Below, in pieces: positions 777-38,574 of a stretch of 64,000 bases of DNA. The notes beneath the pieces are model-generated. The model was not told the DNA's origin. It ran no database searches and saw nothing but the letters and a program-made list of their open reading frames with translations. Position numbers and translations under genes: made by a program. The stretch is from Longimicrobiales bacterium (GTDB lineage: Bacteria; Gemmatimonadota; Gemmatimonadetes; Longimicrobiales; Gaopeijiaceae), in NCBI GenBank assembly GCA_965116095.1, contig OZ220481.1, forward strand, positions 1,525,192 through 1,589,191. Direction: 5' to 3'. Within the stretch, counting starts at the first letter, position 1. The number at the start of each line of letters is the position of its first letter.

Positions 777-3644
777 CTACGACACGCCTCCGGAGCGAAT
801 CTCCAGCCCCAAGGTCTTGCCCTTCTCCAGGGCGGGCACTCCTTCCTCCAGCCAGACCGGAGCGGGCGCGTCCTTGAGGTAGTGGTCGAAGAACTGCTGC
901 ATGCGGACCGCCCAGTCCTTTTGGTTTGCCGCGCGCCGGAGTCCGTGCGCCTCCCCGTTGTAGTTGAGCATCCAGACCGGCTTGCCCAGCCTCCGCATCG
1001 CCACGAACATCTCAATCCCCTGATACCAAGGGACCGCCCCGTCCTCGTCATTGTGGAGCATCAGCAGCGGCGTGCGGATCTTATCGGCGAAGAAGAGGGG
1101 GGAGTTGTGCAGGTACTCGGCGGTGGCGTCCCAGAGGGTGGCGCCGATCCGGCTCTGCGTGCGCTCGTACTGGAACATGCGGCTCATCCCGGTTGCCCAG
1201 CGTATTCCGCCGTAGGCGCTCGTCATGTTGCTGACGGGAGCGCCGGCTTCGGCGGCTGCGAAGAGGTCCGTCTTCGTGATCATGTACGCAATCTGGTACC
1301 CGCCCCAGGAGTGTCCCTGCACGCCGACCCTCTTCGGGTCGACATATCCTTCCGCCAAGATGCTCAGCACGCCCGGCACGACCGCGTCCAGCGCGCTCTC
1401 GCCGGGATATCCGACCTCGTAGGGGATGTCCGGGATGAAGACGACGTAGCCTCGGCTGGCATAGAAGGACACCGAGATGGAGGAGCCGCCGGGTCTGGGG
1501 CTTCGGTACTGATGCAGGCCGTCGGACATGCGCTCGTAGAAGTAGACCATCATCGGGTAGTCGCGGCTCTCGTCGAACCCGTCCGGCTTCACGAGAATTC
1601 CCTGAAGCGGCGCGCCGTCGTTTGAAATCCAGCTGACGAGCTCCGCCGATCCCCAGCGCGCCTCCGCCTGCTGGGGATTCGCGTCCGAAAGGCGGAGAAG
1701 ATTCTCAAAGTCCGGCCCCGTCGCCCAGAGATCGGGAAATTCCCGGAAGTCCTCGCGCGTGACGAGCCAGCGGTCCGCATCCTTCGCTTTGCCGCGAAGG
1801 CGGAATCTCTTGTCCTCCATCAGCAGCGGAGTTGGCGCTGCGGGCCGGTCCGTCCGTCCCTTGTGAAATCCAGACGCCTTGTTGGAAAGGTGGAACGCTT
1901 CCCAGACGGCCTCGCCCTCGGGAGCAAAGGGATCCTCGGGATCCATTCGAGCAAGCCGGTACCGCACGCCGGTCGCGCGTCCCCGCCCCGCCGTGACGGA
2001 CTGGACCTCGCCGGTCTCGGGCTCGAAGCGCCAAACATCGAAGCGGTCGTAGAAGAGAAGCGCCTCTTCCCCCTTGGTCCAGCCCGCAGCGCCGTAGGGG
2101 GGAGGAATATCCGGGTCGTCGCTCAACTCGTTCCAAAGCGGCTGGCCGACTTCTTCCCCCACGGCCCGCGTCTTTCCGCTCTCCATATCGGCGACGATCC
2201 AGCGTTTCGCGTCGCCGTCCCACCAATGGGCGTAACGCCCAGTCGGCGAGAGCGCGGCAAAGCCCTTCGTCTTCTCCGCGATCCGCCTCTTTGCGCCCGT
2301 CCGCGCGTCGACCGCGTACAGGTCGGAGTATCTCCCGTCCCACGAAACCAGCTGCCTATAGAGAAGATCGCTCGTGCCCAGGTACCATCCGCCTCCCTCC
2401 GCCGGAGGCCGGATGCCGGGCACATCCTCGCTCCCCAGCTGGACCACGCGGCCATCCTCCAGATGCACGATCGCCAAGTAGCTCCGGTTGCGCTCGCGCT
2501 CCAGCTGCCTGAGCTGCATCGGCTGGAGGTACGGATCCTTCCAGTTCCAGATGTCCAGACGCACCCGGTCCTCGTCCAAGACGCCGTCTTCGGGCTCGGA
2601 CTCTTGCCGGGGCGCCGTGCCGAAGCGCAGCTCTTGTCCGTCCTTGGAAAACGCGATGTCGCCGTGCTCGCTGACCGTCCATCCGTCCGGGAGCGCCTCG
2701 GACGCGGAGGAGGCGCGCGCCGCGGCTTCAAAGCCCGGCGCCGAAGCATGATAGACGCTGAATTCACCGTCCTCGGAGCCCTCTTCGCCGCGATCCGCCC
2801 GGTCGCTCAGGAACGCGACCTGCGTCCCGTCCCTCGAAAGCGCGAGCTGCGCGTACCTGCCCTCCCCGGACGCGACCGCAAAGGAGCGAGGGCCTTCTTC
2901 GTCCAGCGCGAGAACCGTGACCCCGTCCGCCGCGCCGTCCGTGCTCGAAGCGGCGAAGGCGAGCGTTTCGGACTCTTCGGCAAAGACGTATTCGGTCGCG
3001 AATTCATAGCGAAAGCGCGCGCCCGACTCGAGAGACAGCGCGATCAGAGAGGAGCCCGCCTCCTTGGATGCCCCGGCCCCGCGCCCGGGCCCTCCTTCGG
3101 CAGGCGCCTCCTCCTCCGCGCCCTCCTCCCCTTCTTCGCCCTCCGCGTCTTCGGCTTCCGGCTCCTCCGTCGGTTGAAATGCCGCCCAAGCGCCCGTGGG
3201 CGCAGCCTTCCAGCTTTTTACCTCGCCCGCCCTGCGCGCCTCTCCTCCCCCTGCGCCGATTTCGTCCAAGACGAAGTAGGCGAGGGTGTCCTTCGGAAGA
3301 TCGCTCCCCTTTGAGCCCTCCATCTTGAGCGAGTCCAAGACCGCATCCGCCGGCGGGATCCGAAAAACGAGGAATTTCGACCCGCTCGTGAAGACCGGCG
3401 CCGCGCCTCGGATCCTTGCCTCTTCGCTCCCCTCTACGCTGCGCACAACGAGGACTGGATCGCCCTCGTAGGGCGTGAGCGCGTACGCGACCCACCGCCC
3501 GTCCGGCGAGAGCTGCGGCTGGGCGATGCTTCGCCAAGCCAGCGCGTCATCGTGGTCAAGCGCCGGCGGCGCCTCTTGGGCGGCGAGCGGCGCCTGAAGG
3601 GCCGCGAACGCGAAGAGAGCGGTCAGCGGGTTCCTAAGGTTCAT
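777..3644 (-). CDS. S9 family serine peptidase (prolyl oligopeptidase / dipeptidyl aminopeptidase type) with an N-terminal beta-propeller region and a signal peptide
   Basis: GHSWGGY nucleophile-elbow motif, C-terminal alpha/beta hydrolase region with D and H. Acidic low-complexity insert (EEPEAEDAEGEEGEEGAEEE). Start moved from the ORF-track start to the ATG giving MNLRNPLTALFAFAALQAPLAAQ (signal peptide). Confidence 0.85.
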   Translation of the reverse strand: MNLRNPLTALFAFAALQAPLAAQEAPPALDHDDALAWRSIAQPQLSPDGRWVAYALTPYEGDPVLVVRSVEGSEEARIRGAAPVFTSGSKFLVFRIPPADAVLDSLKMEGSKGSDLPKDTLAYFVLDEIGAGGGEARRAGEVKSWKAAPTGAWAAFQPTEEPEAEDAEGEEGEEGAEEEAPAEGGPGRGAGASKEAGSSLIALSLESGARFRYEFATEYVFAEESETLAFAASSTDGAADGVTVLALDEEGPRSFAVASGEGRYAQLALSRDGTQVAFLSDRADRGEEGSEDGEFSVYHASAPGFEAAARASSASEALPDGWTVSEHGDIAFSKDGQELRFGTAPRQESEPEDGVLDEDRVRLDIWNWKDPYLQPMQLRQLERERNRSYLAIVHLEDGRVVQLGSEDVPGIRPPAEGGGWYLGTSDLLYRQLVSWDGRYSDLYAVDARTGAKRRIAEKTKGFAALSPTGRYAHWWDGDAKRWIVADMESGKTRAVGEEVGQPLWNELSDDPDIPPPYGAAGWTKGEEALLFYDRFDVWRFEPETGEVQSVTAGRGRATGVRYRLARMDPEDPFAPEGEAVWEAFHLSNKASGFHKGRTDRPAAPTPLLMEDKRFRLRGKAKDADRWLVTREDFREFPDLWATGPDFENLLRLSDANPQQAEARWGSAELVSWISNDGAPLQGILVKPDGFDESRDYPMMVYFYERMSDGLHQYRSPRPGGSSISVSFYASRGYVVFIPDIPYEVGYPGESALDAVVPGVLSILAEGYVDPKRVGVQGHSWGGYQIAYMITKTDLFAAAEAGAPVSNMTSAYGGIRWATGMSRMFQYERTQSRIGATLWDATAEYLHNSPLFFADKIRTPLLMLHNDEDGAVPWYQGIEMFVAMRRLGKPVWMLNYNGEAHGLRRAANQKDWAVRMQQFFDHYLKDAPAPVWLEEGVPALEKGKTLGLEIRSGGVS

Positions 3645-4023
3645 CAGACTTCTCCGGTTGCGCTCCGTCGGACGCGAACAGCCTCTCGTACAGAGCTTCG
3701 TTGAATCCCGCCACGAAGACGGTTCCCGCGCGGATCGAGGGCGCCCGGAGCTTTCCGGTCCGCCCAAAGATCGGCGAGAGCGCGTCATCTCCAAGGGGCG
3801 CGCCCTCGAGGTTGAAGGAAACCACCTTCTTGCCGCGAGTCGCATACAAGGTACGGACGCCGGAGAGGATCTTCCGCGCCTCGCTTCGGTCCACGGGCGC
3901 CTTCCCGGCGTGCCGCACCTCTCCGTCTCGTACGCCGTGCTTTGCAAGAAACTCTTGCGTGCGCTTGCAGCTGGTTCAGCCCGGCCGGTGGTAGCGCCAG
4001 GCGAGCTTCGGTTGATCGCTCAT
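3634..4023 (-). CDS. ArsC/Spx/YffB-family thioredoxin-fold protein with an in-frame TGA at codon 16. This is either a selenocysteine (UxxC) candidate or a recent pseudogene. The ORF track only reports the part after the TGA (3634..3918).
   Basis: Read through the TGA, the product is MSDQPKLAWRYHRPG-[TGA]-TSCKRTQEFLAKHGV...LRAPSIRAGTVFVAGFNEALYERLF, 129 codons. This aligns residue-for-residue with the Spx N-terminus ([21 protein letters not shown]), with the TGA on the first Cys of the CxxC motif. A GAGGAGG Shine-Dalgarno sequence sits just 5' of the ATG at 4023. The C-terminal motif is like the ArsC/YffB-family C-terminus. Confidence 0.4.
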
Positions 4024-4126
4024 CGCCTCCTCGCTCTCATTGGTCGCGCCGCCGCCAAGACGCGCTCCCTTCTCTCGTATGCCCTTTGATCAATGCGCCG
4101 GCGCAGCGCCGTTCCAAGCGTGCAAC

Positions 4127-7100
4127 CTAATTGCCCGCCTTGAGCATCGCTTCGCGCAGGCTCGCCGTCGTTTGAATTTCGTAGCGCCCCGCATCTCGGC
4201 CGCGAAACACCTCGGGCGGCGGCCCTTTCAGCAGAGCCCGCACGCTTCCGGTGGCCGGATCTCTCACGATCGTCACGGGTCGCGAATCGTCCGCCCCGAT
4301 TTGAACAAGGCCCTCGGGACCTTCCAGCTGAATGACGTCGATCCGCTCCGCCAGATCCCCCGCGAGCGGAACCGCAAAGAAGAAGTAACTGTCGCCGTAG
4401 GCCCCCGCATCCGGCTCAAACGCAAGCGAGCGCAGCGCGCGACCGGCCGCGTCCCGAAGGTCGACGCGGTAGGAGCCCGCCTCGGTCGGAAGCTGCGGCG
4501 CAGCCTCCAGGACAAGCGGACTCAGGAGCCTTAGCTCGCCGTCCAGGACGCCTCCCCGAAGGATGAGAGACCTCTCTTTCTCCGCAGCCGATCCCTCGTC
4601 CAGCGAAAATGCGGCGCGCCCTCCCCCTTCGGCCTCCTCCCGGTAGTCGATCACCTTCTCGTAGTTCCAGTCGCTCAGCCAATTCAGTCCCGACCGGTAG
4701 CAGTACCCCATGAAATCCCGGTATACCACCGGATCGACCAGCGCTTCCGAGCCGAAGTCGTAGCCCCAGACGCCGATCGCGCCGTCTACGTGCGGAAAGT
4801 CCGGGTCCGCGTCCGTCACGCCGCCGCACGGGGCGTGCACCAGATTCAAGCTGTGGCCCACCTCGTGGGCCAGCTCCATCGGCCACGGCTTCCCGATGCT
4901 CGCCCACCCCCCGAGTCTGGCCCTGCCCCGCACGTAGCCGTTGCGGCTTGCGCCGACTCCGTAGTAATAGCCCGTCTCTCCGTCGACCGCCCGAAGAAGC
5001 TCCATCTCAAGCACGAGCTCCCACTGACCCCCGTCGCTCGTGAGGTCCAAACCGGTGTAGTAGGGCTCGCGGGAACGGGCGGTAAACTCCCCGAAGGGAA
5101 AGCTGTTCCTGAACGGCGCCGTCTGCTCCCCCGTTCCGTCGATGCCGCCGACCCATTCCAAAGCCGAGGAATCCGGATCGACCGCCTCGAGAACGGGCAC
5201 GACGGTGAGCCGCATCGGCGGCGCGCGAATCACCTCGAGCGCACGCCGACCCGACTCCGGGAAGCGCGTCGAGCTTCCCTCCGAAAGCGGAATGCCGCCC
5301 GAGCGAAGCTCAACGACCAGCTCGGTCCCGGGCTCGAGCGCATGCCCCGGAATTACGGCGTTGTGGGAGTGCTCGAGCCCGGATTCGTCGAAGCGGACGG
5401 AAAGAAGGTCGGCCCTCCGCTCCGCCGTCGTCTCGAATACGCGCCGCCCGTCTCTGAAAAAGGTCGCGACCACCTCGGGCTCGAAGAACGCGCCATCCCG
5501 ATCCGCAACGACGAAGACGCGAAGGAGCGCGTCGCGCCCCGCAATGAGGCGCGTGTCCATGCCGGGACTCTGCACCGATTGAATGAGGTACGCCCAGGGG
5601 ATCCTCACCTTGACCTCCTCCACGTTTTCGCATCCCCGGCCGGAGTGGCTCCAGAGGCCTCGGAGCCACCTCTGAAACGAGGGCGCGGGCGAAGCGCAGA
5701 GCTCCGTGTCGGCGAAGTTGAAGGCGCGCAGTCCTCGAAGCTCCTTCATCGAGCGGGGCAAAACGCCGGAAAGCCCGTTGCGGCTCAGGTCAAGCCCCCT
5801 CAGCTCCGCAAGATGCGCGATCTCTCGGGGCACGCCGCCCGCCAGATCGTTTCCCGAAAGATTGATGCTGCGAAGCTCGGAGAGGTGGGCAAGCTCATGA
5901 GAGAGCGCGCCCGCCAGGCCGTTGTCCCTTAAGTCGAGCGCCACGACGCGGCCATCGCTTCTTCGCGCCGAGACGCCGTGCCACGCGCTGGGCGGAAGAG
6001 GCCCTCCCCAATGCCGGGCGTTCGACCATCCTTCTCCGTCCGTGTCTTCGAAGAGCCCCGCCAGGGCAAGACGCTCGACTTCCTCGTCATCGCAAAAACG
6101 CACCCAGTCCGGCTCCGCAAGCTCCTTCGCCCAGTCGCGCATCTCGCGGTTGCTCCGGGGAACGCACAGCCCGGACTCCGAGCTCTGAAAGGACTTCAGA
6201 CCCCCTTTATCGCGGATGCACGCCGGGACCACGCCCTTGAGCCGCGTGGACGAGATCCACAGGCGGCCCAGCGATCTCGCTCCGCGACAGAGCTTGGCGG
6301 AAAGCCGCCCGTCGATTCCGGTCGAGGTAAAATCCAATTTCTCCAGCGTTTCGATGTCCCACAGGGTTTCCGGAATCGACCCGGTCAGACCGGTTTCCGA
6401 CAAATCGAGCTCCTTCAGCCGGGAAAGGCGTCCAAATTCCCAGGGTATCGTCGAATCGATTTCAGAATTCCGATCCAAATACAGGCGCTCCAGACTCCGC
6501 AAGCCGCCCAGCTCCGGAGGGAGAGCGCCGCTCAGCCGGTTGCTGCCAAAACTCATGACCTTGAGCGAAGCAAGCGCCCCCAGCTCTTTGGGCAGCGGTC
6601 CGGTCAGACGGTTTCCGCTCAACTGCATGCTCTCCAGTTTGGCGAGCGCGCCCAGTTCGGGCGGAATCGGTCCTTCAAGGGCCGCGTTGTAGAGCCCGAG
6701 ATCCACGAGGCTCTCCATGCGTCCAAGCTCCTTCGGAAGCGGACCGCTCAGGTCGCTGTGCCCCAGATAAAGCCACTCCAGCTTCTTGAGCTGGCCCAAT
6801 TCGGGAGGAATCGATCCCTCAAGGGGGTTTTCGCCCAACCAGAGCACCTCCAGATTCTCGAGATTCCCCAGCTCCTTCGGGATGCCGCCCGTAATTTCCG
6901 CCCGAAGCGCGTGAAATCGGCGCAGCTTTGTGAGGTTTCCCAGCTCCGAAGGGATCGGGGCGCCGAAGGCATTCCCTGAGAGCGACAGCTCCTCTAAGCG
7001 GCTCAGCTCGCCCAATTGAGACGGGATCGGCCCCTCAAGCGCGTTGCCGTAGAGTTCCAGAACTCGTAGCGCCGGCAGCTGCGAAATGGACGCCGGGATC

Positions 7101-8134
7101 GAGCCGCTCAAGCCGTTGTAGGTGAGCGTTAAGGTATCAAACGCCTCAAGCGGGGACGGAATCTCCGGTATTTCGCCCCGAAGATTCTCATTTTCCGCAA
7201 TGGTCAGACGCTTCAACCGGGAGAGATCCCAGATGGAAGACGGAAGCTCTCCGTCCAAGCCGTTGGCCACTAGGGACAGCCGAGTCACGAACCCCGCGGA
7301 GTCGGCTTCGACGCCCCGCCACTGGCTGATCGGCGCTTCCGTGAGCCAGTGCTCTCGCCGTCTCCACCCCTCGCCTCCCGTCGCCTCGTACAACTCTCGC
7401 AGCGCCTCCCGATCCGGCGTGATCGGAAGACAGACCACGACGCGATCGCCTTCGTTTTCGATCGACCTGAGCCACTCCAGCATCTCTCGCGGCAGACACA
7501 GTCCGCTCGCGTCGAACCAGAAGGTGCGCAAGCTGAGATCTTGAAGCCAAAGCGGAAGGACGCCCTTCATCTGCGTATTCGCCGCGTCGAGAAACTCAAG
7601 CTTCTTCAGGCCGGCAAGAGAATCCGGGAAGTTGCCCGAGATGCCCGTGTCGTTCAAGGGCAGCCGGCGGAGCTCCCCAAGGCCGCCCAGCGCGCCTGGA
7701 AGGGCTCCGGCAAGCTCCGGGTTATAGCTCAGGTCGAGCGCTTGAAGACCTTCCAAGTCGCCGACTTCAGGGGGGAGTTCGCCCCTCAGGTTGTTCTCGT
7801 ACAGCTCTAGACGGCTTACCCGCCCGTCGTCCCGCACCCAGACGTTTGCCCAATCGGCGAGCGGCGCGTCGGTGAGCCAACCGGTCTTGCGCGCCCAACC
7901 GGGACCGCCCAGCGCATTGTACATCGCCACGAGAGCCGCCCGGTCGGCTTGAACCAAACGAACGCCATCGCGCGCGTCCGCAACCTCCGGCGCGACGGCC
8001 GAGCGGTCCGGGCTGCACGACGCCGCTGCCGCCAAGGTCAAACACGCCCAGGTTGTTGAACGGCGACGAGACCGGTTGGCCTCGCGCCCTCGCCTAGGCG
8101 CCCCGCCAAACCCCCGCTCCGCGACAGTCGTCAC
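4127..8134 (-). CDS. Large lipoprotein-like secreted protein. It has three plant-type leucine-rich-repeat modules, each headed by an LRRNT-like cap, followed by a C-terminal metzincin-like zinc metallopeptidase domain.
   Basis: 24-residue LxxLxLxxNxLxGxIPxxLGxLxxL repeats. Three caps of the form LxxLYxATxGxxW...W.GV. HEVGHSLNLVH fits the HExxHxxGxxH metzincin pattern with N at the Gly position, as in pappalysin/M43. The ORF-track start (GTG at 8224) overlaps the upstream gene. I propose GTG at 8134, which overlaps the upstream TGA stop as GTGA, giving an N-region and hydrophobic stretch ending AAASC (lipobox-like). Confidence 0.7.
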   Translation of the reverse strand: MTTVAERGFGGAPRRGREANRSRRRSTTWACLTLAAAASCSPDRSAVAPEVADARDGVRLVQADRAALVAMYNALGGPGWARKTGWLTDAPLADWANVWVRDDGRVSRLELYENNLRGELPPEVGDLEGLQALDLSYNPELAGALPGALGGLGELRRLPLNDTGISGNFPDSLAGLKKLEFLDAANTQMKGVLPLWLQDLSLRTFWFDASGLCLPREMLEWLRSIENEGDRVVVCLPITPDREALRELYEATGGEGWRRREHWLTEAPISQWRGVEADSAGFVTRLSLVANGLDGELPSSIWDLSRLKRLTIAENENLRGEIPEIPSPLEAFDTLTLTYNGLSGSIPASISQLPALRVLELYGNALEGPIPSQLGELSRLEELSLSGNAFGAPIPSELGNLTKLRRFHALRAEITGGIPKELGNLENLEVLWLGENPLEGSIPPELGQLKKLEWLYLGHSDLSGPLPKELGRMESLVDLGLYNAALEGPIPPELGALAKLESMQLSGNRLTGPLPKELGALASLKVMSFGSNRLSGALPPELGGLRSLERLYLDRNSEIDSTIPWEFGRLSRLKELDLSETGLTGSIPETLWDIETLEKLDFTSTGIDGRLSAKLCRGARSLGRLWISSTRLKGVVPACIRDKGGLKSFQSSESGLCVPRSNREMRDWAKELAEPDWVRFCDDEEVERLALAGLFEDTDGEGWSNARHWGGPLPPSAWHGVSARRSDGRVVALDLRDNGLAGALSHELAHLSELRSINLSGNDLAGGVPREIAHLAELRGLDLSRNGLSGVLPRSMKELRGLRAFNFADTELCASPAPSFQRWLRGLWSHSGRGCENVEEVKVRIPWAYLIQSVQSPGMDTRLIAGRDALLRVFVVADRDGAFFEPEVVATFFRDGRRVFETTAERRADLLSVRFDESGLEHSHNAVIPGHALEPGTELVVELRSGGIPLSEGSSTRFPESGRRALEVIRAPPMRLTVVPVLEAVDPDSSALEWVGGIDGTGEQTAPFRNSFPFGEFTARSREPYYTGLDLTSDGGQWELVLEMELLRAVDGETGYYYGVGASRNGYVRGRARLGGWASIGKPWPMELAHEVGHSLNLVHAPCGGVTDADPDFPHVDGAIGVWGYDFGSEALVDPVVYRDFMGYCYRSGLNWLSDWNYEKVIDYREEAEGGGRAAFSLDEGSAAEKERSLILRGGVLDGELRLLSPLVLEAAPQLPTEAGSYRVDLRDAAGRALRSLAFEPDAGAYGDSYFFFAVPLAGDLAERIDVIQLEGPEGLVQIGADDSRPVTIVRDPATGSVRALLKGPPPEVFRGRDAGRYEIQTTASLREAMLKAGN

Positions 8135-9417
8135 CCGGCGCCGCCCCGAATCTCGTCTCTCATGGCGCCCAGAGCGCGGAGGGCGCGCTCGACGTGCTCC
8201 TCCGTGTTGTAGACGTGGGGGCACAGCCGCACCCCGCCGGTCTCGGCGCCCGCGATCCCGAATTCGCGGTAGAGGCGATCCAAGACGACGCTACGGTTAG
8301 GTCCCGCGCGCGCGATGCACACGCCCAGGGACAGCTCCTTTCGCATCGGGGTGACAAGCTCCAGCCCCAACGCGCGCATCCCCTCCTTCAGGCGCTTGGC
8401 CAGCTCTTGAATGCGGGCCTCGATTCGCGCGGGTCCGATCTCCTCGTGCAGCGCGACGGCCGTCCCCAGCGCGCCCAAGCAGGCATCGTCCCGCTGTCCC
8501 AGAGACTCGAACTTGCGGGCGCCCATGGGATCGGGTTCGATGTCGGCTCCCCAGCTGGGCGCCACGCTGTGCGGCCAGAGCTCGGAGACGCGCTCCGCGC
8601 GAACATAGAGAATTCCGGCCTCCTTGGGACCCATGAGCCACTTGTGGGCGGACGCGCTATAGGAGTCGCACCCCATCTCTCGCAGGTTGACGTCGGCCGC
8701 GCCCCAGCTCTGCGCGCCGTCCACGTGCACAAAGACGCCCCTCCTTCGCGCCTCCAAGGCAATCTCTCGCACCGGCAGGCGGATGCCTGTCACATTCGAG
8801 ATGTGCGTGAGCGCGAGGACCCGCGTGGATGCGCCGAGCGCCTCCAGGAACGGGGCCGCGAGTTCGCCCGCGTCGCTAGGGCTCGTTGGCGTGGACGCCT
8901 TGCGCGTCCGCACGCCCGTTCGCTGCGCCCGCACCTCCCACGCCACGTTGTTCGTGGGGTGATTCTGATCCCAGAGGAGGACCTCGTCGCCCGGACCCAG
9001 ATCCAGGCCCGCGCAGATGGTGTTATTGGCCTCGCTGGTATTTCGCACGATGGCGATCTCGTCTGCGGATGCGCCTAGCAGCTTCGCGATCCGCGCGCGG
9101 GCATCTTCGGCCATCCCCCGGAACTTCGCGCGGTTCTGGAAGGAGCAGTCGCGGTCAATATCCCGCGAGAGCTCCTCCACGCGCGCAGCCACCTCAATCG
9201 ACGAAGGGCAGAGGTTTGCGGCGTTCATCGGCACGCGCTCTTCGGCAAAGGAGAACCGGGCCCTCACGTCGTCCCATGGGACTGACCCGCCCGCCCGTGG
9301 AGTCTCCGCGCGGAGACGCCCGCGCCGGATTTGACCGTCCAAGAGACCGGCGACGGCGCCGGGAAGCGCCGCGCACCCAAACGTCCCGCCCAGAAAATCG
9401 CGCCTCGAAGGGTCCAA
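8131..9417 (-). CDS. Class V (fold type I) PLP-dependent aminotransferase / cysteine desulfurase-like / isopenicillin-N-epimerase-like enzyme with a twin-arginine (Tat) signal peptide
   Basis: SRRDFLGGTFGCAALPGAVAG Tat motif. Class V signature around SASAHKWLMGPKEAGILYV (PLP lysine). Start proposed at TTG (codon LDPSRRDFL) preceded by GGAGGG. The ORF-track ATG at 9546 would overlap the divergent gene's ATG. Confidence 0.75.
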   Translation of the reverse strand: MDPSRRDFLGGTFGCAALPGAVAGLLDGQIRRGRLRAETPRAGGSVPWDDVRARFSFAEERVPMNAANLCPSSIEVAARVEELSRDIDRDCSFQNRAKFRGMAEDARARIAKLLGASADEIAIVRNTSEANNTICAGLDLGPGDEVLLWDQNHPTNNVAWEVRAQRTGVRTRKASTPTSPSDAGELAAPFLEALGASTRVLALTHISNVTGIRLPVREIALEARRRGVFVHVDGAQSWGAADVNLREMGCDSYSASAHKWLMGPKEAGILYVRAERVSELWPHSVAPSWGADIEPDPMGARKFESLGQRDDACLGALGTAVALHEEIGPARIEARIQELAKRLKEGMRALGLELVTPMRKELSLGVCIARAGPNRSVVLDRLYREFGIAGAETGGVRLCPHVYNTEEHVERALRALGAMRDEIRGGAG

Positions 9418-9544
9418 GCTCCCTCCTGAAAAACCCGAATCGCGCCGGACCGCTCTACCCGCCGACCGCGGCCTGGACGCAAAGGAAGCGCGCCCAGACC
9501 GTATACTGGCTAGGCGACATCCACATCCGCAACCAAGGGGACGC

Positions 9545-10837
9545 ATGAAGCCGATCGCAGCGCGAATGGCCAATCTGGGCACGGAAAACGCCTTTAGCAT
9601 CGGACGCGACATCGCCAAGTGCGAGGCTAAGGGCATGCGGGTCATCCGCTTCAACCTCGGCGCGCCGGACTTCAGAAGCGCGCCCTTTCTCAATCGGATT
9701 GCGGCGGATGCGCTCGCGGCGGGCCGGAGCGGCTACTGCGACCCCCAAGGAATTCCGGCGTTTCGCCAGGCCGTGTCGGATCATCTTCTCGCGAGCCGCA
9801 AGGTTGAAGTCTCGCCGGATCGAATCGTGATCTTTCCCGGCGCAAAGCCTCCGATCGGCTTCACCTTCCTCAGCTGCGTCAATCCAGGCGACGAGGTGTT
9901 GTACCCCTCCCCCGGCTTTCCCATCTACGAGTCGTGGGTCCGCTTCGTCGGCGCGACGCCGATCCCCTATCCAGTCACTCAGGCGCGCGACTTCGCGCTC
10001 GGCGCGGACGACATTGCGCCCTTCCTCTCCCCGAAGGTCAGCTTGATCATCCTCTGCTCCCCATCCAACCCCACCGGGGGCGTCCTGAGCCGAGAGGAAC
10101 TCGCAGGGATCGCGGCGTTGATCCGGGAGAAGGCCCCGGCGAGGGCCCGGGTGTACTCCGACGAGATCTACGAGCAGATCCTCTTCGACGGTCGGTCCCA
10201 CGAGAGCATCCTCTCGCACCCGGGCATGGCGGAGCGGACGATTCTGGCGAGCGGCCTCTCCAAGGGATTTGCGATGACTGGATGGAGACTGGGCTGGGCG
10301 GCGCTGCCGACGCCGAAGGAGGCGGAGCTGTATACCCGCCTGAACATCAATACCGTCAGCTGCGTCCCGCCCTTCCTGCAGGAAGCCGGCGCGGCGGCGT
10401 ACGCCGATCCCAGGTCCGCGCCGATCGTCTCGAAGATGGTTCAGGCCTTTGAGAGGCGCAGGGACTGGATCGTGCCGGCGCTGAACCGGATCCCGGGCTT
10501 CTCTTGCCGCCTGCCGCAGGGAGCGTTCTACGTCTTCCCCGACGTTTCGGGCGCGTGTCTTCGCCTTGGGGCGATGGAGGCGTTCGAGAGACTCTCTCCC
10601 GAGGCCCGGGCGCGCACGTCGCCGGCGGGCATGCTGCAGCTGTTTCTCTTGTACAGGCACGGCGTTGCCGCGATGGATCGGGCATCCTTTGGGCGGATCG
10701 GCGCGGGCGAAGAGCACCACCTGCGGCTCTCGATCGCGAACTCGATGGAGGATATCCGGGAGGGCGCAAGCAGACTGGCGCGCGCCGCCCGCGACGCTGA
10801 GGGCTTTCGGAGCTTCGCCGAAGGCTGGAGCTGGTAG
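9545..10837 (+). CDS. Class I/II aminotransferase (aspartate/aromatic aminotransferase family)
   Basis: N-terminus like Thermus-type AspC. SGLSKGFAMTGWRLGWA PLP-lysine motif. Full length 430 aa. Confidence 0.85.
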   Translation: MKPIAARMANLGTENAFSIGRDIAKCEAKGMRVIRFNLGAPDFRSAPFLNRIAADALAAGRSGYCDPQGIPAFRQAVSDHLLASRKVEVSPDRIVIFPGAKPPIGFTFLSCVNPGDEVLYPSPGFPIYESWVRFVGATPIPYPVTQARDFALGADDIAPFLSPKVSLIILCSPSNPTGGVLSREELAGIAALIREKAPARARVYSDEIYEQILFDGRSHESILSHPGMAERTILASGLSKGFAMTGWRLGWAALPTPKEAELYTRLNINTVSCVPPFLQEAGAAAYADPRSAPIVSKMVQAFERRRDWIVPALNRIPGFSCRLPQGAFYVFPDVSGACLRLGAMEAFERLSPEARARTSPAGMLQLFLLYRHGVAAMDRASFGRIGAGEEHHLRLSIANSMEDIREGASRLARAARDAEGFRSFAEGWSW

Positions 10838-10854: not shown

Positions 10855-12591
10855 CTATTCGGACAAAGGGTGTGACGCGCGCCTCTGGACCGCGGCGATC
10901 GCGTCCAGCTTCTCCGCGACTTCGGGGGCGATCTCTTCTGCGGGAACAAAGTCGGCGAGTTCGTGAAAGCTCTTCTTCCGCAAGAGGTTGGGAAGGTTGA
11001 TCCTTCGGAAGTAACTCCTGAGGATCGGCTTCAGAACCTCGTCGCTCGCCTTGATCCCTTGGTCCCAAGGCGACGCGCCTTTCAGCGTGCGCAGAGCGCG
11101 AGCGACTTCCGAGATCGCCGCGCGCATCGAGGCGAGTCTATTCTCCTCTTCTTGGGGCGCAAAGAGGGGCGCCGGATCACCCTCCTTGGCCGAAGCGCGC
11201 GCGTACGCCTCAAGCGTCGCCTTGGAGCAGAGGTAGTTCTCAGTCTCCCGGCGCTTCCAAGAGAGGCGCTGCAGGCGCGGCTCGCCAGCGTCCGTTTTGT
11301 CAAGCCGATCAAAGAGGGCGACGCCCTTTAAGTCCGGGAGCGCTTCTCGCAAGCCATAGAAGTGGCGCATGGCGTCGGACGGTCGATTGCCGACATAGTG
11401 AACAAATGGCTTCTCCAATGCGCCCGCCGCTTCCTCGTTGGCCAAGCGCCGCGCGAAGGCCTGAAGTATGGCGAGATCGGTGGAACCCTCCAAGTACAAG
11501 ACCCAGCCGGTCTGTTCGGCTTGGAGATAGTGATCCGCGCTGATCTCGGCCAGGGCTTTGCGCGTCTGACCTGGTCGGTCGATCCGATGCGGCGCTCCCA
11601 CAAAGGAGATCACCACGTCCTTTCCGGCCGCCTCGTTCAGCAACGCCTCCGAGTGGGTGGCCGCGATAATCTGGCTACCGCTCTCGCTGGCCGCGCCCGC
11701 GATCTCTCCGTAAATCTGTCGCTGCCGTATGATCTCCAGACCGGCGTCCGGTTCGTCCAGCAGGACGACGGCGCCGGGATTTGCATGCATGTACGCAAGA
11801 ATCAAGAGCGTCTGCTGCAGGCCCCGCCCCGCGGAGGAGAGGTCCAGCGCCGCGCCGCGCTCCCGATACCCCAGCGTGATTTCGCCCCGCTCCCGGAAAT
11901 AGCGGGGCTCCTCCAGCTCCACTCCGAAGAGCGCCTTGATCCGCGCCTTGAGCAGCTCCCAACGTTCCAGATCCCGCTCCGAGATGCGAAGACAGAGATT
12001 TCGGAGCACTTCGGCTGTGCGCCCCTCGCCGATTCTGACATCCACCGCGCCTTGGTCGAGACGCGTTTCCACGGCGGCCAAGCCGGAGAGCGGAGGAAGG
12101 AAAACGACGCGGGTTGAGGCCGCTTCCTTGGGGACCGGCATCCGCGCCGGCCGCTTCCCCTCTTCCAGCCGCAGAGGTCGGCAGTAGAGCGACTCTTCAT
12201 TGGCGTAATCGAATTCAAGGCCGCACCGCCAAGTCTTGCCCCTTTGGATGCCTTGGACGACGATGTCGATCCGCACATTGCTTGTCCGCGCGCTGCCCCG
12301 GACGCGGCGAACGTCGCGGGTGCGCAGATTGCGCCAGAGAAGTTTGGCGGAGGGATGCGGGATCGCGAGCGCGTCTCGGCGGTTAATCGCGACGCCGGGC
12401 CGGCGCTCCGGCGCGCTCTGGCCGGCGCGCTTCTCGCTCCAGCGCTTGACGCCGATATCCCAGAGGGCCAGCGCCTGCATCGCCGAAGTCTTGCCCGAGT
12501 TGTTCGGTCCGACGAAAACGACGGGGTTTCCGAGATCGATCTCGATCTCGTTGAAGCGCTTGAAGTTCCGCACGGTCAGCTTCACTAGCAT
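10855..12591 (-). CDS. OLD-family (overcoming lysogenization defect) class 1 nuclease: N-terminal ABC-type ATPase fused to a C-terminal TOPRIM domain. Candidate anti-phage defence protein.
   Basis: Walker A FVGPNNSGKTS, ABC signature LSSAGRGLQQ, Walker B VVLLDEPDAGLE, H-loop IIAATHS. C-terminal VLYLEGSTDLAIL (TOPRIM Glu) and ALFDRLD (DxD). At 578 aa it is similar in size and motif order to phage P2 Old (586 aa). Confidence 0.7.
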   Translation of the reverse strand: MLVKLTVRNFKRFNEIEIDLGNPVVFVGPNNSGKTSAMQALALWDIGVKRWSEKRAGQSAPERRPGVAINRRDALAIPHPSAKLLWRNLRTRDVRRVRGSARTSNVRIDIVVQGIQRGKTWRCGLEFDYANEESLYCRPLRLEEGKRPARMPVPKEAASTRVVFLPPLSGLAAVETRLDQGAVDVRIGEGRTAEVLRNLCLRISERDLERWELLKARIKALFGVELEEPRYFRERGEITLGYRERGAALDLSSAGRGLQQTLLILAYMHANPGAVVLLDEPDAGLEIIRQRQIYGEIAGAASESGSQIIAATHSEALLNEAAGKDVVISFVGAPHRIDRPGQTRKALAEISADHYLQAEQTGWVLYLEGSTDLAILQAFARRLANEEAAGALEKPFVHYVGNRPSDAMRHFYGLREALPDLKGVALFDRLDKTDAGEPRLQRLSWKRRETENYLCSKATLEAYARASAKEGDPAPLFAPQEEENRLASMRAAISEVARALRTLKGASPWDQGIKASDEVLKPILRSYFRRINLPNLLRKKSFHELADFVPAEEIAPEVAEKLDAIAAVQRRASHPLSE

Positions 12592-12725: not shown

Positions 12726-13508
12726 CTACCTCTCGGATATCTCAACCTCGAAGAGCTGCCTCCACAGCTTACCGGTGAGATAAAACTTGCCGCTCGCCGC
12801 ATCGTACGCGATCCCGTTCAGGACGGCGCCCGCGTCTGGAGATCGCTCCGCCTGAAGAGTAAGGCCGTAGGCATCAAGCGCGCCGGTCACTTCGCCCAGA
12901 AACTTGTCGATTCTCACGATCTCGTCCGTCTGATAGACGTTGGCGTAGATGTCGCCGCCCGGGAGGCACTCCAGCTCATTTAGGCTGCGCGTGGAATAGC
13001 CCCCCCGCCGCACCGGAAGCTCCCCCTCCGCCTCGAACGTTTCGGGATTTCGGATCGTCAGCGTTCCCGATCCGTTGGACATGTAGAGCCGGCTCCCGTC
13101 AAAGCAGAGGCCCCAGCCCTCTCCCTCGTAAGAGAGCGAGTCGGAGAGCTCCAGAGTCCGAGCGTCGTAGCGGTAGGCGACGCCTGCCTTCCAAGTCAGC
13201 TGGATGACCTGGGAGTCTACGACCGCAATCCCCTCCCCGAAGCGATCCTCGGGCAGCTCGACCTGCGCCAACACCTCGCCCGTCGCCACGTCCACGCGCC
13301 TGAGCGTGCTGCTGCCGTATTGGCCCGTGCTCTCCAGAAAGACGCCGTCGTAGAGCTCCAGCCCCTGCGTGTAGGCCCCGCCGTCGTGCGGCAGCGTACG
13401 GAGGACGGAATAGCCCAGCTGCGCCTCGCCGCCTTGGTCGCAGCCAAGCGCCGCGAGGGGGAAAAGCACGCATGAGAGCTTGATCGGAAACGATCTAGGT
13501 ATCTTCAT
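12726..13508 (-). CDS. Glutaminyl-peptide cyclotransferase (plant/bacterial beta-propeller type), secreted or lipoprotein
   Basis: YTQGLELYDGVFLESTGQYGSSTLRRVDVATGEV and repeated propeller blades. Signal peptide with LAALGC. Confidence 0.8.
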   Translation of the reverse strand: MKIPRSFPIKLSCVLFPLAALGCDQGGEAQLGYSVLRTLPHDGGAYTQGLELYDGVFLESTGQYGSSTLRRVDVATGEVLAQVELPEDRFGEGIAVVDSQVIQLTWKAGVAYRYDARTLELSDSLSYEGEGWGLCFDGSRLYMSNGSGTLTIRNPETFEAEGELPVRRGGYSTRSLNELECLPGGDIYANVYQTDEIVRIDKFLGEVTGALDAYGLTLQAERSPDAGAVLNGIAYDAASGKFYLTGKLWRQLFEVEISER

Positions 13509-15335: not shown

Positions 15336-18300
15336 AATTTGGTTTAGATAGGGCTGATCTCGGCATTGATCTGGTCGCAGAAGAGGCGGACGGAAGTGGC
15401 TGGTGCGCGATCCAGTGCAAGTGCTACGCGCCGGGAACGCGCGTAAGCAAACGACACCTCGATTCCTTCATCTCGGCGTCGGCGCGCGAGCCGTTCACCG
15501 CGCGCATCGTGGTCGACACCGGGGACTCTTGGGGTCCGAACGCCCTAAAGACCCTCAAGGGGCTGAAGCCCGCCTGCGCGGTTCTCAGATTCGGCGACCT
15601 TGCGGACCGACGCTTTGAATGGCCGGATCTTTCGGCGCATCGGCCCGAGGATCTCCGCTACGCCGGCGCGCCGTTTACGCTTCGTCCGCACCAGAAAGAG
15701 GCGCTGGACGATGTAATGGCCGGCTTCGAGGCCTTTGATCGCGGCAAGCTGGTGATGGCATGCGGCACCGGCAAGACCTTTACCGCCCTTCGGATCGCGG
15801 AGGCGGTCGCGGGCCCCGGAGGCCGGGCGCTTTACTTGGTGCCTTCGATCTCACTGTTTGCGCAGTCTATGCGCGAGTGGGCCACGCAGAAGTCCATTCC
15901 TCACGGCTACATCGGCATCTGTTCGGATACAAGCGCGGGGCGCTACAGAGAAGACGCCACGCTGATGGAGCTTGAGATCCCGGTCACGACCTCGCCGGTT
16001 CGCATTTCGGAGGAGCTTCGCAAGGAGCGGCCGGAGCAGATGACGGTCGTGTTTTGCACCTACCAGTCGCTCCCGTTGGTGGAGCGCGCTCAACAAGAGG
16101 GGGCCCCGCCGTTCGATCTCATCCTCTGCGACGAGGCGCATCGGACCACCGGAGTGGAGCGAGCGGACGACAAGAAGACCTCGCCCTTCGTCCTCGTGCA
16201 CGACAACGCCCGAATTCGTGGACGCAAGCGGCTGTACATGACCGCGACGCCGCGCATCTACACGGACAGATCAAAGAGGAAGGCCGCCAAGCACAGCATT
16301 GACGTCTTCTCGATGGACGAGAAAGAGATCTACGGCCCCGAATTCCACCGCCTTTCCTTTTCGCGAGCGATTGAACGCGAGCTGCTCTCCGACTACAAGG
16401 TCGTCATTCTCGCCTTGGCGGAAGACAGGGCGAACGCAGTGCTCCGGAAGCACGTCTCCAGTAGCGAGGCGAGCGAACTCAACATCACCGACGCCGCCAA
16501 GATCATGGGCTGCTGGCGGGCGCTTCAGCGACGCCAGGCTGCGGGAGGCAACGGGAAAGCGGACGACGAGTCCGAACGCCCGCTTACGCGGGCGATCGCC
16601 TTCGCGAATACCATCAAGGCCTCCCGTCTTTTGGAAAAACACTGGGACGGCGTGGTCGAGCAGGCGATCAGCATGCTGCCGCCGGAGGAACGGGCGAGCG
16701 CGCTGCGATGCTCTACGAAGCACGTAGACGGAAAGACGCGGGCGCTGGACCGCAAGGCGCGGATCGAGTGGCTGAAGGGCAAGGAGGACGGCGTCTGCCG
16801 GATCCTGAGCAACGCCCGCTGTCTTTCGGAGGGCGTCGACGTACCGGCGCTGGACGCCGTGTTCTTTACCGCGCCGCGCAGGTCTCCCGTCGAGATCGTC
16901 CAAGCGGTGGGACGGGTCATGCGCAAAACCCCGGACAAGGACTACGGGTACATCGTGCTCCCGGTCGCCATTCCGCCGGGAGTGTCGCCGGAGAAGGCGC
17001 TGAACGACAACAAACGCTTCGAATCCGTGTGGGAGGTCCTGCGCGCGCTCCGCTCCCACGACGACCGGTTCGATGCCGAGGTCAACCGGCTCGATCTGAA
17101 GAGGCCGGAGCGGATCATTATCGACATCGACGACTCGGATCAGTGGGAGATCGCATTTCCGCCGCTCGACCTACCGCCCGAGGCGATCTTCGCGAAGATC
17201 GTCGAGAAGTGCGGCGACCGAAAGTACTGGAAAACGTGGGCCAGTGACATCGCCGACATTTTTGCTCGCTTAGTGGAGCGAATCGGGAGTCTTCTGGCCG
17301 ATCCAGCAAACGAAGCGCTCAAGGAGTGGTTTGACGGCTTCCACCAAGAGCTGCGCGAGTCGATCAACAAGTCGGTCAGCGAGAGCGACGCCGTAGACAT
17401 GGTTGCGCAACACATCCTCACTCGACCGGTTTTCAACGCGCTCTTCGAGGGATACGACTTTGCTCGTGGAAATCCCGTCGCGCGGGCGCTGGAGCAGCTG
17501 CGCCAAGACTTCGGAGAGTTTGGGCTGGAAAACGAGCTCCGCGACATGGAGCCCTTTTATAAAAGCGTCCGGCTTCGCGCCAGAGGTTTGGACGACAGCG
17601 CGGCGCGCCAACAGGTACTGAAAGAGCTGTACGAGCACTTCTTCAAGATCGCGCTAAGCAAGGCAGCCGAGCGCTTGGGAATCGTCTACACGCCCGTCGA
17701 GGTGGTGGACTTCATTCTTCGAAGCGCGGATCACGTGCTGCGGGAAGAGTTTGGCAAGGGGCTTACCGACGAGGGGGTACATGTACTGGATCCCTTCACC
17801 GGGACAGGCCTCTTTCCAGCGCGAATGCTCCAGCTTGACCTGATTGACGACGCCGACGTGGCGCGCAAGTACCAAGAGGAGATTCACGCAAATGAGATCG
17901 TACTGTTAGCCTACTACATCGCAGCGGTCAACGTCGAAGAGGCTTTTCGCGCAAGAAGGGGCCTCGGAAGTGAATACAGCCCTTTCGAGGGCATCGTTTT
18001 GACTGACACATTTAACATGAATGAGTGCCAGACGAGCGTCTTCCTGTCAGAAAACAGCGACCGATCCAGCCGGCAGGAACAGGCGCGCATTGAAGTAGTC
18101 GTTGGCAATCCGCCTTGGTCTGCAGGGCAACGGAGTTCTGCCGACAATAACCCAAACGCAAGATACCCGGCGGTGGAGGCGCGAATCGCGAAGACCTACG
18201 CGGTGCGCTCGACAGCAGCAAACAAAAACAGCTTGTACGATTATTACAAAATGGCCATTCGATGGGCCTCTGACCGCATCGGCGATCAGGGCGTCGTCGC

Positions 18301-19107
18301 TCTCGTAACGAATGGGTCTTGGATCAGCGGCAACGCGGATTCGGGAGTCCGCGCGTGTTTGGCGGAAGAGTTTACGTCAATCCATGTAGTGAATCTTAGA
18401 GGTAATCAGCGCACACAGGGCGAACGGTCTCTTCAAGAGGGCGGAAAGATTTTTGGCCAAAGCTCCCGTGCGCCAGTAGCGATTACGCTATTGGTTCGTA
18501 ACCCCAAGAAATACAAGAACGGGTGTCGTATCTTGTATCACGACATCGGCGACTACCTGAAACGAGAAGACAAACTCAAAATTCTGCGCAGGGTCAGGTC
18601 GATTCAGGGAATATCCCAAATCAATTCTAAAAATGGATGGCGAGAGATCACACCAGATCCACATCATGATTGGATCGATCAGCGAGATCCTCGCTTTCAA
18701 CGTTTTTTTCCAATTAGCGTAAAGGTCAGTGGAGCAGATAGAGATGCAAGACCGGATGCAGTGTTCCGCAAATACAGTCATGGGTATCAGACCGGCAAGG
18801 ACGCTCATGTGTATAGTTTCTCGCCCAAAGCCTGTCTAGACAATGCCCGCAGTATGATTGCTGAATATCACTGTGCCGTGCGTGAATACGCTGATAACAA
18901 GGATTCAGTTTTTCATCGATTTGCTTCAAATATAAAATGGAATGCAAAACTGCGAAATCGCGTTAAAAATGGACTTGCGCGCAAATTCTCCGATAAATAC
19001 CTGAGAAATGTTGCATATCGACCCTTTGTTGGACAAATTCTCTATGGGGATCAGTTTTTTGCACACAGGCCCGCACACACAAGAGCCATGTTCCCTACTA
19101 CTGAACA

Positions 19108-19140
19108 TCGGGGAACAGGAATCGGGGAACAGGAATCGGG
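19108..19140 (+). repeat. Direct tandem repeat of a 14-nt unit (tcggggaacaggaa, 2.4 copies) inside the restriction-modification gene
   Basis: Seen directly. Translated as EQESG / NRNR in the two overlapping frames. Confidence 0.8.
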
Positions 19141-19190
19141 TCATTTGTGTTTCGGGTTTGGGATCGACGAAGCCCTTCTCGACGCTCGTC

Positions 19191-19440
19191 GTCAACGTGC
19201 TTCCCGACTCGGAGCTGGTGTCAAAAGGACAGTGCTTTCCCCGTCACCTATACCGAACAACCGAGCGATCTGCCTTCCCGGCATTGGGTCCGGGAGAGAA
19301 TTCTCGGTCTTTATCGTTGACAGACTGCCGGATTACCACATCCTTACAAACGGGCAGTGCTTCCCTCGCTGTGATTGGGTCCATTCACGGGGGTACCTTT
19401 GACCACCCTGACGTGTTTTCCCAGGAGTCGCCGACACTCC
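19191..19440 (+). repeat. Imperfect tandem duplication of a unit of about 122 nt, with the two copies read in different frames (VVNVLPDSELVSKGQCFPRH... versus IVDRLPDYHILTNGQCFPRC...)
   Basis: Both overlapping ORFs (ending 19402 and starting 19008) carry an LPD-x7-GQCFPR peptide about 122 nt apart, not a multiple of 3. Confidence 0.6.
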
Positions 19441-20198
19441 AGCGAATCGACAACATTACCGACGCGGCCTTGCTCCGGTTTCGGGCTGAGTACCAAGACG
19501 AGGACATTCAAAAGGACGACATCTTCAACTACGTCTACGGCATCCTGCACTCGCCGCGCTATCGCGACCGGTTCAAGAACGACCTTTCCAAGGGCCTGCC
19601 GCGAATTCCCTTTGCTCCTGACTTCGACGCCTTTGCTGGAGCGGGATCGGCGCTCTCGGAGCTGCATCTTCGCTACGACGACGAGAATCTCACGCGGTAT
19701 CCACTAAAGGTGGTGTCTTCTACGGGCCGCGATTTGGAAGCCGGCGATTTTCGATTGGGGAAGCGCCGGATGCGCTTTGCGGACAAGACGAAGCGCGATA
19801 CGCTGATCGTGAACGACCAAGTGAGACTCTTCGGCATTCCGAAGGAGGCCCACCGCTATGTCGTTGGCGGGCGAACGCCGCTTGAGTGGTTTATCTTCTA
19901 CTTTTTCGTAAAGACCGATAAGAGGAGCGGAATCGTAAACGACGCGAACGGGTGGTTTGAAGACCCTCGAGACTTGGTGCCAGCCATTGAGCGACTTGTC
20001 TATGTGAGCGTCGAGTCGGCTAGAATCGTTGATAGTCTCCCCGACCCGTTCGGCGACGTGCATAATGCATAGCTGCGTGAGGTCCGCGATATTTGAGGCC
20101 TGACTGAGCTTTCGACCACAGGCGCGTCGGAGTCGCGTCTTCCCTCCTTGCGGTTTCCTCGGACGAGCTGGCAAAGGCACTGGAGCGAATCTGGAAAC

Positions 20199-33820: not shown

Positions 33821-33866
33821 AAGAAGAGAAGCGGGGTTCCAGAGCCTATGCTCCGGAACCCCGCTC
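33821..33866 (-). terminator. Rho-independent terminator candidate downstream of the large repeat protein gene
   Basis: Ten-bp GC-rich stem (gcggggttcc / ggaaccccgc) with a loop. On the minus strand it is followed by UUCUCUUCUU. Confidence 0.5.
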
Positions 33867-38550: not shown

Positions 38551-38574
38551 ATTTTCTCCGCGATGCGCGAAAAC

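Follow-up and report, generated by a model that had tools for sequence, protein, structure and literature searches.

What is an in-frame TGA doing in the redox motif of a small ArsC/Spx-like gene? The question arises from a 64,000-nucleotide stretch of the genome of a Longimicrobiales bacterium (contig OZ220481.1 of assembly GCA_965116095.1), the whole of which is here called the window and is numbered from its first letter. The gene occupies 4023-3634 on the minus strand, and its TGA falls where the first cysteine of a CxxC motif would be expected. An initial inspection of the letters and their open reading frames (ORFs), here called the sequence-only reading, had proposed that this TGA specifies selenocysteine (Sec, or U in motifs), with a nonsense-mutated pseudogene as the alternative. 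The analysis reported here supports, with high confidence, the identification of 4023-3634 as a selenocysteine-encoding gene for a thioredoxin-fold protein of the ArsC/Spx/YffB superfamily, with the motif U16-T-S-C19 and a selenocysteine insertion sequence (SECIS) of its own. With it, a selenoprotein family that is already known and curated gains a new and divergent member. Its parts are the following.

3634..4023, minus strand: complete predicted selenoprotein gene of 129 sense codons including the TGA (Met1-Pro129, Sec16), from translation and whole-length alignment with homologues
4026..4032, minus strand: Shine-Dalgarno-like GAGGAGG, read from the sequence, two bases 5' of the ATG at 4023, a spacing that is short if the whole heptamer is counted
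3979..4002, minus strand: conserved N-terminal block L-A-W-R-Y-H-R-P-G, 5' of the UGA, from conservation across 77 sequences
3976..3978, minus strand: in-frame UGA, predicted Sec16, first position of the U-T-S-C redox motif, from translation and a conserved column
3967..3969, minus strand: Cys19 codon TGC, the presumed resolving Cys of UxxC, from the sequence
3943..3959, minus strand: bacterial SECIS hairpin within the codons Thr22-Gln-Glu-Phe-Leu-Ala27, from covariation, RNAalifold and codon bias
3733..3768, minus strand: family signature F-G-R-T-G-K-L-R-A-P-S-I (residues 86-97), including the invariant G-K-L-R-A-P loop, from the family alignment
3634..3918, minus strand: 94-aa ORF with a GTG start reported by gene callers, the C-terminal 73% of the real protein, from the ORF list

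Translation from the ATG (4023-4021) to the TAG stop (3636-3634) meets a single in-frame TGA, at codon 16, beyond which the frame stays open for 113 codons with a coding-like excess of G+C at third codon positions (GC3). GAGGAGG would serve as the Shine-Dalgarno sequence. The sequence-level statements made at the outset (the ATG, the GAGGAGG, the in-frame TGA, the 129 codons, and the presence of only the 94-aa ORF in the supplied track) all agreed with the letters when rechecked. The 94-aa ORF is an annotation artefact of gene callers cutting at the UGA; the only near-identical public protein in a collection of 5.8 billion sequences (P0001; NCBI/ENA) is this same 94-aa fragment, without a name.

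Relatives of the gene were found by a pattern-plus-tblastn scan of one genome per species, which gave 212 relatives, 80 loci being kept; a metagenome scan supplied an independent sample of 21 loci, for a total of 101 related loci. The 80 genome loci come from Gemmatimonadota (many of them Longimicrobiales), Vicinamibacteria and other Acidobacteriota, and Latescibacterota, with a few from Melainabacteria/Obscuribacterales and one from the Gemmataceae. Where the window gene has its TGA, 76 of the 80 reference-genome loci likewise have TGA and four have TGC (L041, L054, L055, L072), and the metagenome loci have TGA in 20 of 21 and TGC in one (L083). The sequence-only reading had taken an intact TGC in close relatives as the mark of a simple pseudogene; the column holds TGA in 96 of the 101 loci and TGC in five. 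Cys forms comprise these five loci and the database proteins P0002 and P0004-P0006, and the full-length database Cys forms read WRYHRPG-C-TSCKRT.

Selection on the protein is evident on both sides of the codon. The residues W, R, Y, H, R, P and G before the TGA are each kept in 75-77 of 77 sequences with synonymously varying codons, and variation in this block amounts to 29.5% at third codon positions versus 4-5% at first and second positions. In most loci, an ATG in the same frame precedes the TGA by 11-14 codons (by 15 in the window). Because WRYHRPG is conserved as protein and preceded by an in-frame ATG, translation begins 5' of the TGA and continues through it. Downstream of the UGA, 32 positions are at least 95% conserved, and the Cys19 codon is TGC or TGT in 76 of the 77 genes of the Sec-form alignment, which consists of the window gene and the reference-genome loci.

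A nonsense pseudogene, in which an ArsC/Spx-like gene was inactivated by mutation of TGC to TGA and yields no functional product, would agree with public annotation holding only the 94-aa fragment, with the divergence of the window copy at five conserved positions and with the mismatch in its bottom SECIS pair. It fails as an explanation because the TGA column is conserved, the same TGA recurring across at least three phyla, and because purifying selection acts on both flanks; a covarying SECIS, described below, lies 3' of the codon, the frame remains open with coding-like GC3 for its whole remaining length, the protein passes a family hidden Markov model (HMM) over its whole length, and the start codon and Shine-Dalgarno sequence are intact. 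This alternative is therefore considered very improbable, and the preference of the sequence-only reading for a Sec-for-Cys UxxC protein of the ArsC/Spx type is borne out by the TGA conservation, the two-sided selection, the covarying SECIS and the match to the NF041106 family. Two metagenome-assembled genomes (MAGs), CALJKZ01 (L005 and L013) and JABDLS01 (L002 and L060), each contain two distinct Sec-form copies, so some genomes appear to carry paralogues, unless strains were merged in binning.

The SECIS hairpin is formed by pairing of 3958-3954 with 3948-3944, plus A3953-U3949, for a stem of 5-7 bp, around a loop of G3952 U3951 U3950 (or AGUUU with the A-U pair open); it starts 19 nt past the UGA, and its apical loop lies 22-23 nt past the UGA. 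The 77 Sec-form genes were aligned without gaps over the TGA plus 57 nt, with the helix occupying columns 20-26 and 30-36. Standard pairs are formed in 97.7% of the helix cells (sequence x pair), a figure that is 33-71% once the 3' partners have been shifted by 1-3 columns; 36 helix cells are changed on both sides versus 5.7 expected, and none of 500 shuffles reached the observed double changes, percentage paired or covariation score. Pair 21-35 is G-C in 51 sequences, U-A in 12 and A-U in 10, and pair 23-33 is A-U in 60, G-C in 13 and U-A in one. RNAalifold, unprompted, yielded the same helix. Several compensatory switches alter amino acids while pairing is kept, such as ACG...GCG (Thr, Ala) to ACU...GAG (Thr, Glu) or GCA...GUG (Ala, Val), and CAA...CUU (Gln, Leu) to CGA...CUC (Arg, Leu). 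Such changes, which alter the protein yet preserve the helix, are hard to explain unless the RNA structure is under selection.

Codon choice within the hairpin is equally biased: the Phe codon is TTT in 72 of 77 genes versus a background of 18.5% in these GC-rich loci, the Leu codon is CTT in 62 of 77 versus 8%, and the Glu codon is GAG in all 77. Since the hairpin is built from the codons of T-Q-E-F-L-A, both the peptide and its codon choice are doubly constrained, as protein and as RNA. The four Cys forms from reference genomes have neither the QEFLA peptide nor the helix. Published criteria for a bacterial SECIS (bSECIS) are a loop of 3-9 nt, a stem of 4-16 bp, a G within the first two loop positions, the loop pattern N1-G-[G|U]-N-N2, a spacing of 16-37 nt and a minimum free energy of -7.5 or lower (PMC13188914). 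The window hairpin satisfies every one of these, AGUUU fitting the loop pattern with N1 and N2 able to pair, and the 47 nt after the UGA having a minimum free energy of -12.7 kcal/mol (family median -12.0). Like the consensus bacterial SECIS (the E. coli fdhF type, as modelled in bSECISearch), it carries a G followed by a U in a small apical loop, with an upper stem of 5-7 bp, a spacing of 22-23 nt and a location within coding sequence just past the UGA; unlike the consensus, it is very short, weak alone and has no conserved lower stem that could be identified. A search for such a lower stem turned up only trivially conserved columns. A longer stem that is possible in the window, TGCAAG (3969-3964) with CTTGCA (3948-3943), was rejected, as it is not kept in the relatives with ACT...GAG.

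Two loci stand apart in this region. L083 (metagenome contig Ga0070726_10004794, approximately 1501-1560) is a TGC Cys form with TQEFLAKH and six of the seven SECIS pairs, having CTC for CTT; by its sequence, Sec seems to have been converted to Cys recently here, leaving a relic SECIS. In L096 the TGA is still present but no more than three of seven SECIS pairs remain (ACC CAG GAG TTC CTG GCC); this locus may be a decaying copy or use a different structure.

The possibility that UGA is read as a standard amino acid, whether by genome-wide reassignment (code 4 or 25) or by near-cognate Trp or Cys read-through, was examined using the other genes of the window. TGA ends eight of the 23 other confidently assigned genes, including those for AsnRS, MtaB, Alr and ComEC, and internal stops occur in none of the 23; the match of AsnRS, which is ended by TGA, extends to the end of its family profile. 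UGA codon reassignment (CODE REASSIGNMENT) is excluded because TGA is an ordinary stop in these eight genes. One homologue could be cited in favour of a standard amino acid: P0003, from a 584-nt contig in ENA, has Trp at the Sec column (WRYHRPGWTSCKRT), presumably because its gene caller used code 4. P0003 also has a nonsensical C-terminal tail, so that its gene was probably called with UGA as Trp and read past the true stop, a second type of mis-annotation in the NF041106 family. A dedicated covarying hairpin with a bSECIS loop signature would be needless under reassignment, and pairing of Cys with TGA at a redox CxxC is the standard signature of Sec (PMC9312934). Decoding of this codon as a standard amino acid is thus extremely improbable. 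No second credible selenoprotein was found among the TGA-interrupted coding frames scanned across the window.

The locus could also be parsed, as the ORF callers parse it, into two products, namely a 15-residue leader ending at the UGA and a 94-aa protein from the GTG at 3918, with the hairpin having a regulatory role, such as in attenuation or translational coupling. However, the 20 codons between the TGA and the GTG (TSCKRTQEFLAKHGVRDGE...) are conserved as protein and hold the resolving Cys and helix 1, the Cys-form homologues are single continuous proteins, and the HMM match at residues 8-112 crosses the TGA. There is next to no likelihood of two products.

The family to which this selenoprotein belongs was identified by profile searches in which the TGA was entered as Cys. 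The protein scored 100.7 bits with NCBIfam NF041106, 'ArsC family (seleno)protein', for which the curated cutoff is 85 (E 6.4e-29), residues 8-112 aligning with positions 2-107 of the 107-position profile and spanning the TGA; the motif that defines the family, U/C-x-x-C at the N-terminus of helix 1, is present as U16-T-S-C19. Pfam PF03960 (ArsC) was matched at 19.4 bits, below its gathering score of 24 (E 1.3e-3; profile positions 1-77 of 79), and the Pfam Glutaredoxin match was also sub-threshold (20.2 bits). The ArsC equivalog TIGR00014 was absent from the NCBIfam matches at E <= 1, and the Spx cutoffs were missed by both TIGR01617 (23.8 versus 75.05 bits) and NF002459 (21.8 versus 123 bits). 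Family invariants are W9, R10, Y11, H12, R13, P14, G15, U16, S18, C19, E24, F25, L26 and G87-R-S/T-G-K-L-R-A-P95, of which G87, G90, K91, L92, R93, A94 and P95 are at least 95% conserved. In phmmer searches of solved structures, Spx was the best sequence match (E 2e-4), its Cys10 aligning with the TGA and its Cys13 with the retained Cys, the same placement that had been proposed at the outset. The G-K-L-R-A-P loop aligned to the LLRRP loop of Spx, and by analogy with thioredoxin-fold proteins it would be the cis-Pro loop, facing the active site.

The fold was modelled on a Cys homologue, P0002. The AlphaFold model of P0002 with five homologues (mean predicted local distance difference test score 93.1; predicted template modelling score 0.86) has the order beta-alpha-beta, helix, beta-hairpin, helix, a second beta-hairpin (made of strands 94-97 and 100-103) and a last helix, and its CxxC lies where helix 1 begins. 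When this model was compared with the PDB by Foldseek, Spx was at the top (6gho, 1z3e; probability 1.00, template modelling (TM) score 0.52-0.56), followed by YffB (1rw1) and ArsC-family proteins (3gkx, 3f0i, 3rdw), then by glutaredoxins and NrdH. The Spx, YffB and ArsC-family chains together had probability 1.00 and TM scores of 0.52-0.57, which establishes a thioredoxin-like fold for P0002. Its root-mean-square deviation (rmsd) of 6-7 Å and its predicted beta-hairpin at 55-68, where Spx is helical, therefore place it on a distant branch of the Spx/YffB/ArsC superfamily.

The window protein resembles Spx/MgsR (PDB 1z3e, 3gfk, 6gho, 7f75) in having T-S-C after the first redox residue, GFNE/GYNE near the C-terminus and an L-R-x-P loop. 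It differs from them in scoring far under their family cutoffs, in the rmsd of 6-7 Å of the P0002 model and in the central beta-hairpin that this model predicts in place of an Spx helix; Spx and MgsR are redox-sensing regulators of Firmicutes that bind the C-terminal domain of the RNA polymerase alpha subunit, and the phyla of the window family are different. R773-type ArsC (TIGR00014; the UxxS 'ArsC 1' type) belongs to the same superfamily and fold, with its first active-site residue aligned and a YH-x-P-x-(C/U) context, whereas the window protein has UxxC rather than UxxS, lacks a TIGR00014 match and has no ars genes nearby. The window protein has GFNE at the place of the third catalytic Arg of R773 ArsC.

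ArsC-like selenoproteins were described in 2006 in Desulfotalea and Desulfuromonas (PMC1794560). The Global Ocean Sampling (GOS) survey distinguished 'Arsenate reductase 1' (pfam03960, UxxS, 77 sequences) from 'Arsenate reductase 2' (cd03032, UxxC, 42 sequences) (PMC2398784), and an 'Arsenate reductase-like protein' with UxxC was listed under COG1393 in a 2022 review (PMC9312934) and under NF041106 in a 2026 review (PMC13188914). The window gene has the motif, size and Sec/Cys alternation of the family in both reviews, with no defining difference, and within NF041106 the window copy is divergent, with 58% identity or less to anything retrieved. It also resembles GOS 'Arsenate reductase 2' in having UxxC and belonging to the Spx-like cd03032 branch, which fits Spx as the nearest solved relative; judging by motif and domain assignment, GOS 'Arsenate reductase 2' and NF041106 are probably the same family. 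For the UxxC ArsC-like family, the two selenoproteome reviews give no SECIS structure, taxonomic range or function (PMC13188914; PMC9312934).

Several observations weigh against the selenoprotein assignment. No selA, selB, selD or tRNA-Sec gene is present in the 64-kb window: ARAGORN, applied to the window and to loci L001-L060 of the 80, detected no tRNA-Sec; SelA, SelB and SelD were all absent from the NCBIfam matches of 30 window genes, a result that says nothing on the genome as a whole; and tblastn with an approximate E. coli SelD query gave no match in the window or the 80 loci, which likewise says nothing on whole genomes. There is no biochemical evidence for any member of NF041106 (PMC13188914), and the reviews describe nearly all such selenoprotein families as known from bioinformatics alone. 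The hairpin by itself is weak (-5.9 kcal/mol in the window), its bottom pair (C3959/A3943) is mismatched in the window copy, and it matches no Rfam family at gathering or permissive thresholds. The expectation that folding the 40-60 nt after the TGA would reveal a bSECIS held in so far as a conserved, covarying hairpin lies at the right distance, but the single-sequence fold is no better than shuffles (z +0.84 to +0.90), and the SECIS is therefore demonstrable solely by comparison across sequences. The fold model is that of P0002, which is 47% identical, and not of the window protein itself. Finally, the window copy is on a long branch, its best identity being 54% among genomes and 58% among metagenomes, and at five positions that are otherwise at least 95% conserved it carries changes of its own (G46R, L50R, A62T, L86F and S89T), none of which occurs in its nearest relatives.

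These last features would be expected if the family were a genuine selenoprotein family in which the window copy is relaxed or decaying, or in which the organism has lost its Sec machinery, so that UGA terminates translation. The five private substitutions, the lack of any relative closer than 58% in either collection and the lack of Sec machinery within the window are in keeping with this, and loss of ArsC-like selenoproteins in sister lineages has been documented (PMC1794560). Close relatives that would allow selection within the lineage to be tested were sought in the metagenomes, and nothing above 58% identity was found. On the other hand, the window copy retains the UGA, Cys19, WRYHRPG, the GKLRAP loop, both rare codons (TTT and CTT) and five to six of the SECIS pairs; its score exceeds the family cutoff, and translation of the intact gene that overlaps its 3' end is probably coupled to its own. 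Decay of this copy is accordingly judged unlikely, and a functional selenoprotein gene remains the favoured explanation, the gene itself suggesting that the organism is competent to use Sec.

If the gene functions as predicted, translation would begin at the ATG at 4023, and the hairpin at 3959-3943, acting as a bacterial SECIS, would pre-empt release at the UGA (3978-3976) and recruit SelB-GTP-Sec-tRNA(Sec), with delivery of Sec to the A site. Sec would replace the N-terminal nucleophilic Cys of the CxxC, and the mature protein would most probably be a selenol/thiol oxidoreductase, in which attack on an oxidised substrate by Sec16, at the N-terminal end of helix 1, would lead to a Sec16-Cys19 selenenylsulfide that a cellular thiol reductant would reopen. 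Arsenate is probably not the substrate, because there is no TIGR00014 match, the motif is UxxC and not UxxS, and ars genes are absent from the context. Since the family almost always has Sec (96 of 101 loci) and its nearest characterised relatives are the Spx regulators, it might conceivably sense or regulate redox state by means of selenium, or have another activity that effectively cannot do without Sec; this is regarded as a speculative role of low probability. If it were true, selenocysteine would have a new use in a Sec-dependent switch of the Spx type, with the SECIS doubling as the code for the QEFLA helix.

A few members have UxxS in place of UxxC while retaining the TGA and the SECIS. 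The one exception at the Cys19 codon among the 77 aligned genes is L017 (Gemmatimonadota M8-32_Bin_122; 6031-6042), which has AGT (Ser) and reads TGA ACG AGT AGT, and the metagenome loci L089 and L100 likewise have Ser at this position. These sequences suggest that a one-selenol mechanism may be viable in some members.

The genomic surroundings of the selenoprotein gene were examined for indications of function. Its immediate neighbours are as follows.

777..3644, minus strand: downstream gene for a secreted S9 (prolyl-oligopeptidase-type) peptidase-like protein of 955 aa, with a GHSWGG motif
4127-8224, minus strand: upstream gene for a 1365-aa leucine-rich-repeat protein with an HExxH metalloprotease-like C-terminal region
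8131-9693, minus strand: gene for a SufS/PvdN-like class-V aminotransferase (NCBIfam), with weak matches also to selenocysteine lyase SclA

Judging by its GHSWGG motif, the downstream gene probably encodes an S9 peptidase. Its ATG (3644) overlaps the 3' end of the selenoprotein gene by 11 nt (ATGAACCTTAG; 3634-3644, minus strand), because of which the two are probably co-transcribed, and the overlap suggests translational coupling. Targeted tblastn located an orthologue of the peptidase at this position in just two loci, L027 and L031, the closest ones from Longimicrobiales; the peptidase-like gene is not part of a conserved system. In L006 and L040 the selenoprotein gene is immediately preceded by a SufS-like gene, and in L022 it is followed by one; the leucine-rich-repeat gene looks like an insertion because of the direct adjacency in L006 and L040. 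Targeted tblastn found no neighbour shared across phyla among the related loci, synteny being shallow and lineage-specific, and therefore no function can be deduced from context; the analysis of gene neighbourhoods was noisy owing to shadow ORFs in GC-rich DNA. No ars genes were found among the window genes or the neighbours shared by related loci.

The window is ordinary chromosome, with genes for FtsZ, RecG, AsnRS, MiaB, MtaB, alanine racemase, PstABC, cardiolipin synthase, ComEC and PQQ dehydrogenase. Its G+C content is 65%, and the best matches of the selenoprotein and its neighbours are in Longimicrobiales MAGs. An AAA-ATPase (10855-12591, minus strand) weakly matches the MADS3 anti-phage ATPase, and a 1297-aa helicase/restriction-like protein (15509-19402, plus strand) weakly matches models of a phosphorothioation-system restriction enzyme and of type I R-subunits, all far under the cutoffs; together, these two genes may be a small defence island. 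A tandem-rhodanese sulfurtransferase-like protein (20148-21176, plus strand), with sub-threshold matches to 3-mercaptopyruvate sulfurtransferase and the selenite/tellurite-reduction rhodanese ExtH, probably performs generic sulfur-transfer chemistry. The strongest coding signal of the window belongs to a 1581-aa ORF (33903-38648, minus strand) with no NCBIfam match at E <= 1e-5, and other sizeable ORFs without a family match are located at 12726-13508, 32638-33822, 47185-48492, 50248-51387, 51632-53518 and 59189-61141.

The family, its UxxC motif and its Sec/Cys alternation had already been published, and current understanding of them is unchanged by the window gene. The present comparison adds a covariation-supported SECIS for NF041106, which constrains both the QEFLA peptide and the choice of its codons, and shows that the Sec form strongly predominates in Gemmatimonadota, Vicinamibacteria and Latescibacterota, phyla that are unmentioned in the selenoproteome papers searched. 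The same truncation as in the window probably affects many of the approximately 200 related genes in MAGs of Gemmatimonadota, Acidobacteriota and Latescibacterota that were annotated without selenoprotein-aware gene calling. For the Longimicrobiales bacterium itself, the gene marks its host as a probable user of selenocysteine.

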